Notes under the pieces: generated by a model
The model's input: only the letters and a program-made list of their open reading frames with translations
Database searches by the model: none
Told to the model about the DNA's origin: nothing
Shown: one piece after another, positions 61 through 1,092 of the stretch
Position numbering within the stretch: position 1 is the first letter of the stretch
Layout of the letters: every line of letters begins with the position of its first letter
Position numbers and translations under genes: made by a program
NCBI RefSeq assembly: GCF_003334405.1
Contig: NZ_QOWM01000048.1
Reading direction: 5' to 3' (one strand)
DNA length: 1,092 nt
From: Escherichia coli
GTDB taxonomy: Bacteria; Pseudomonadota; Gammaproteobacteria; Enterobacterales; Enterobacteriaceae

Positions 61-1092
<1,032 letters not shown>

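Follow-up and report, generated by a model that had tools for sequence, protein, structure and literature searches.

An intact Escherichia coli sarcin-ricin loop as an annotation anchor in a partial 23S rRNA gene

The question raised by this locus is whether a 14-nucleotide motif, read on the minus strand at positions 298-311, is truly the sarcin-ricin loop (SRL) of 23S rRNA, intact and in its proper structural place, or a resemblance within some other kind of sequence. All positions refer to the window, the whole stretch of 1,092 nucleotides that was analysed. We regard it as virtually certain that the segment is the ordinary, unmutated SRL of E. coli 23S rRNA. As a textbook site of translation GTPase docking, the feature is not new, and it has no unusual property here; the SRL is among the best-characterised of RNA elements, and this copy is without departure from the reference. 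Its value is as an annotation anchor only: with the SRL intact, the window's strand, register and E. coli numbering are all settled.

Most of the window, positions 61..1092 on the minus strand, belongs to a 23S rRNA gene, of which it covers the 3' third. When scored against RF02541 (Rfam LSU_rRNA_bacteria), a structure-aware covariance model with a gathering threshold of 50 bits, this segment gave a minus-strand match of 1125.6 bits (E = 0), which places it among the bacterial large-subunit rRNAs. The match spans model positions 1899-2925 of 2925, and the RNA is truncated only at its 5' end, by the edge of the window. Moreover, a megablast search of complete E. coli genomes found the window in 5426 of 5426, at a median of 7 places each, and many E. 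coli records were 100% identical across all 1092 nt, with the matching gene annotated as '23S ribosomal RNA'. The preliminary description had taken the loop as confirming both an rRNA call and its strand, and on these results both are correct. In one of the fully identical records, that of strain F9792, the gene order is 16S, tRNA-Ile, tRNA-Ala, 23S, 5S, so that all the elements of an rrn operon (16S, tRNA, 23S, 5S) are present; this operon context is read from the F9792 record, not from the window. The 5S gene of F9792 begins 94 nt past the 3' end of 23S, and since 23S ends at window 61, positions 1..60 (minus strand) are the start of the 23S-5S spacer, namely its first 60 nt, which lie downstream of the 23S 3' end and outside the SRL. 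As a side observation, these 60 nt are the same as the sequence downstream of MG1655 rrlB and rrlG; the rrlC spacer has one base different, and those of rrlA, rrlE and rrlH show what looks like an indel, near window 34. Given the source genome, such differences could be of use in assigning the operon type.

The reverse complement of the window aligned to MG1655 rrlB without a gap from 1873 to 2904 and then through the 60 nt of spacer. From this ungapped alignment, the E. coli number of any base is 2965 minus its window position. The 3' end of 23S, nt 2904, falls at window 61, where the rrlB alignment and the RefSeq annotation of F9792 agree. Window 311..298 maps to 2654..2667, with A2660 at 305 and G2661 at 304, and the coordinates originally proposed for the motif and for these two bases are therefore borne out. 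A shift in numbering was considered, as the 23S gene of F9792 is annotated at 2902 nt and that of rrlB at 2904 nt, and was rejected. The difference in length comes from small indels near rrlB 541-550 and 1172, and because these fall outside the window, the numbering within it is unaffected; nor did the rrlB alignment of the window show an insertion or deletion anywhere from the motif to nt 2904.

The same relation gives the exact place of every other 23S landmark in the window. Among the antibiotic-resistance and peptidyl-transferase bases, A2058/A2059 are at window 907/906, A2451 at 514, A2503 at 462, G2576 at 389, U2585 at 380, A2602 at 363 and C2611 at 354, and every one of them is wild type. 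The positions checked carry no mutation for resistance to macrolides, linezolid or phenicols.

On the minus strand, window 298-311 reads AGTACGAGAGGACC, an exact match at 14/14 positions, and a pattern search of both strands found it only once in the window, even at 2 mismatches. Dinucleotide-preserving shuffles gave a mean of 0.01 matches with 2 mismatches permitted, and base composition predicts 8.9e-6 exact matches to the 14-mer on both strands. The pattern search and the rrlB alignment together place the 14-mer, AGUACGAGAGGACC, at 298..311 on the minus strand, as E. coli 2654-2667.

These figures bear directly on the reading in which the 14-mer matches by chance, or belongs to something other than rRNA, such as a protein-coding gene on either strand. 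An open reading frame of 51 aa with a GTG start does overlap the SRL, at window 243-398 on the minus strand, which is the rRNA sense strand. However, this frame is short and mechanically derived, and its listing by an ORF tool is no evidence of a gene. Moreover, the entire segment 61-1092 aligns to large-subunit rRNA with E = 0, and genes annotated as 23S match it at 100% identity. The coding reading was rejected because of the RF02541 match and the identity to 23S genes, and chance was rejected because only about 9e-6 exact matches would be expected; we consider the probability of either to be vanishingly small. The rDNA contains four more open reading frames at other places, 48-67 aa in length, and none of them is supported as a gene.

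It might also be supposed that the loop is intact but non-functional, lying in an rDNA fragment that has decayed or become a pseudogene, or in a partial copy carried on a plasmid or phage. The window does contain just part of the gene, and 16 of the 37,987 matching places that megablast found in E. coli genomes are plasmid-borne. Against this, all 1092 nt are 100% identical to chromosomal 23S in complete 16S-tRNA-23S-5S operons, and the functional landmark bases that were checked are all wild type. The window is identical to rrlB across 2212-2904 and the 60 nt of spacer, and its sole differences from that gene are two substitutions, U2203G (window 762) and A2211G (window 754). Both positions are unpaired in the covariance-model structure, one as a bulged base and the other within the loop of a hairpin at window 765-742, and MG1655 rrlC has the same G/G. 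As rrlC carries this allele, the difference at 2203/2211 is ordinary between-operon heterogeneity. A defunct or partial copy is thus extremely improbable, and we return to the reading of the motif as the ordinary SRL of E. coli 23S rRNA.

As such, the motif belongs at the tip of helix 95, and the preliminary description had proposed covariance-model alignment as the way of checking this. The alignment puts the motif in the terminal loop of helix 95, and in the sub-range alignment to RF02541 it was not seen to align outside that helix. The 14-mer corresponds to model positions 2680-2693, where the consensus letters are all upper-case. The hairpin loop as a whole, UAGUACGAGAGGACC, is 15 nt long (model positions 2679-2693) and highly conserved, again with upper-case consensus letters; it is closed by a 7-bp stem, with the maximal posterior probability ('*') throughout. 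The stem is formed by E. coli 2646-2652 and 2668-2674, at window 319-313 and 297-291, with the outer pairs C2646-G2674, U2647-G2673, G2648-U2672 and C2649-G2671 and the inner pairs U2650-A2670, C2651-G2669 and C2652-G2668. Helix 95, E. coli 2646-2674, therefore occupies window 291..319 on the minus strand, as given by the structure line of the covariance model, the pairs listed and the fold of an isolated 27-mer.

This 27-mer, 2647-2673, adopted the same stem in its minimum-free-energy fold, with C2658-G2663 closing a GAGA tetraloop, and the bases of the tetraloop and its closing pair are present at window 307-302. Its folding energy did not stand out from those of shuffled sequences (z = -0.62). 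This is to be expected, because what stabilises the SRL is non-canonical pairing and stacking, to which nearest-neighbour models assign no energy, and not Watson-Crick pairing. [quoted passage not shown] G2655 and its flanking bases are identical to the sequence of the crystallised E. coli SRL, and from that identity the same three-dimensional bulged-G motif would be expected here (PMC2896532, PMC6562825).

Over the whole of helix 95 (2646-2674), the window is identical to the E. coli K-12 SRL as represented by rrlB, and the two agree in where they lie, in strand logic and in their place in the secondary structure. All seven MG1655 rrl copies have the same 27-nt segment 2647-2673, and no variation of the SRL was found among these seven operons. 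The sequence identity, position, strand and helix 95 placement of the loop, and its invariance among the MG1655 copies, are matters of direct observation. The eukaryotic SRL of 28S/25S rRNA, in which the ricin target is A4324 in rat and A3027 in yeast, differs from that of E. coli in its flanking stem sequence. In rat 28S rRNA, the equivalent of position 2666 is A instead of C.

How far the conserved core extends is a point on which the preliminary description was partly right. The 12 nt at 2654-2665 are among the longest universally conserved stretches of rRNA (PMC2896532, PMC11912913), and this core, AGUACGAGAGGA, which makes up the first 12 nt of the 14-mer, is matched exactly at window 300..311 (311-300 in the sense of the RNA, minus strand). 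The term 'universally conserved' had been applied to all 14 nt; it holds for 2654-2665, and not for C2666 and C2667, which lie outside the conserved stretch (PMC2896532, PMC11912913).

The function of the loop is taken from published work, in which the GTPase interaction and the sensitivity to alpha-sarcin and ribosome-inactivating proteins (RIPs) were demonstrated experimentally on the identical E. coli sequence (PMC2896532, PMC11912913, PMC6562825). Both the mechanism of GTPase activation and the three-dimensional motif are carried over from that work and would apply to this copy by virtue of its sequence. [quoted passage not shown] Once transcribed and assembled into a 50S subunit, the segment would form a distorted hairpin composed of a Watson-Crick stem, a cross-strand stack at G2655 and the GAGA tetraloop G2659-A2662. 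The translational GTPases EF-Tu, EF-G, IF2, RF3 and SelB would then dock their G domains on the loop. The elongation-factor binding site named in the preliminary description is in this way supported, by helix 95 alignment for the identity of the loop and by published work for the docking.

In the same scheme, the phosphate of A2662, which maps to window 303 on the minus strand, would position the catalytic histidine of EF-Tu and EF-G. This phosphate has been found to touch His84 of EF-Tu and the equivalent histidine in EF-G and SelB, and to order the active site for GTP hydrolysis (PMC11912913). A2660 and G2661 contact EF-G and aid the opening of its hydrophobic gate (PMC6562825), and here too they would be expected to help open the gate that leads to GTP hydrolysis. 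Late assembly of the 50S subunit would likewise require the loop: an SRL deletion has a dominant lethal effect, prevents late 50S assembly and eliminates EF-Tu-dependent decoding (PMC11912913).

The sites of toxin action can be assigned in the same manner, with positions from the mapping and functions from the literature. Alpha-sarcin cuts the bond between G2661 and A2662, ricin acts by depurinating A2660 (PMC2896532, PMC11912913, PMC6562825), and G2655 is a recognition element for alpha-sarcin (PMC2896532). On the minus strand of the window, the bond lies at 304/303 and the ricin site at 305, so that in RNA made from this copy alpha-sarcin would be predicted to cut at the former and RIP N-glycosidases to remove the base at the latter. 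The description of the loop as a target of ricin stands for this RNA in vitro and fails for the bacterial ribosome, since ricin depurinates E. coli 23S rRNA in its naked form and spares the intact E. coli ribosome, because it needs the eukaryotic P-stalk to dock (PMC6562825). Intact eukaryotic ribosomes, in contrast, are depurinated efficiently through docking on the P-stalk proteins (PMC6562825). Prokaryotic ribosomes are, however, substrates of some type I RIPs (PMC6562825).

Beyond the SRL, the window shows a minor feature of its own as an allele of 23S. We think it very unlikely that this allele (G2203/G2211 in the 2200-2223 hairpin together with an rrlB-type 2794-2802) marks a functionally specialised rrn operon that would give rise to heterogeneous ribosomes, and as the SRL itself is invariant, such specialisation is irrelevant to the present finding. 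The window is a mosaic, with a block of the rrlB/G/D type at 2794-2802 (window 163-171) and bases of the rrlC type at 2203/2211. This combination, which is consistent with gene conversion among rrn operons, occurs in no single MG1655 operon, whereas many other strains of E. coli carry it with 100% identity.
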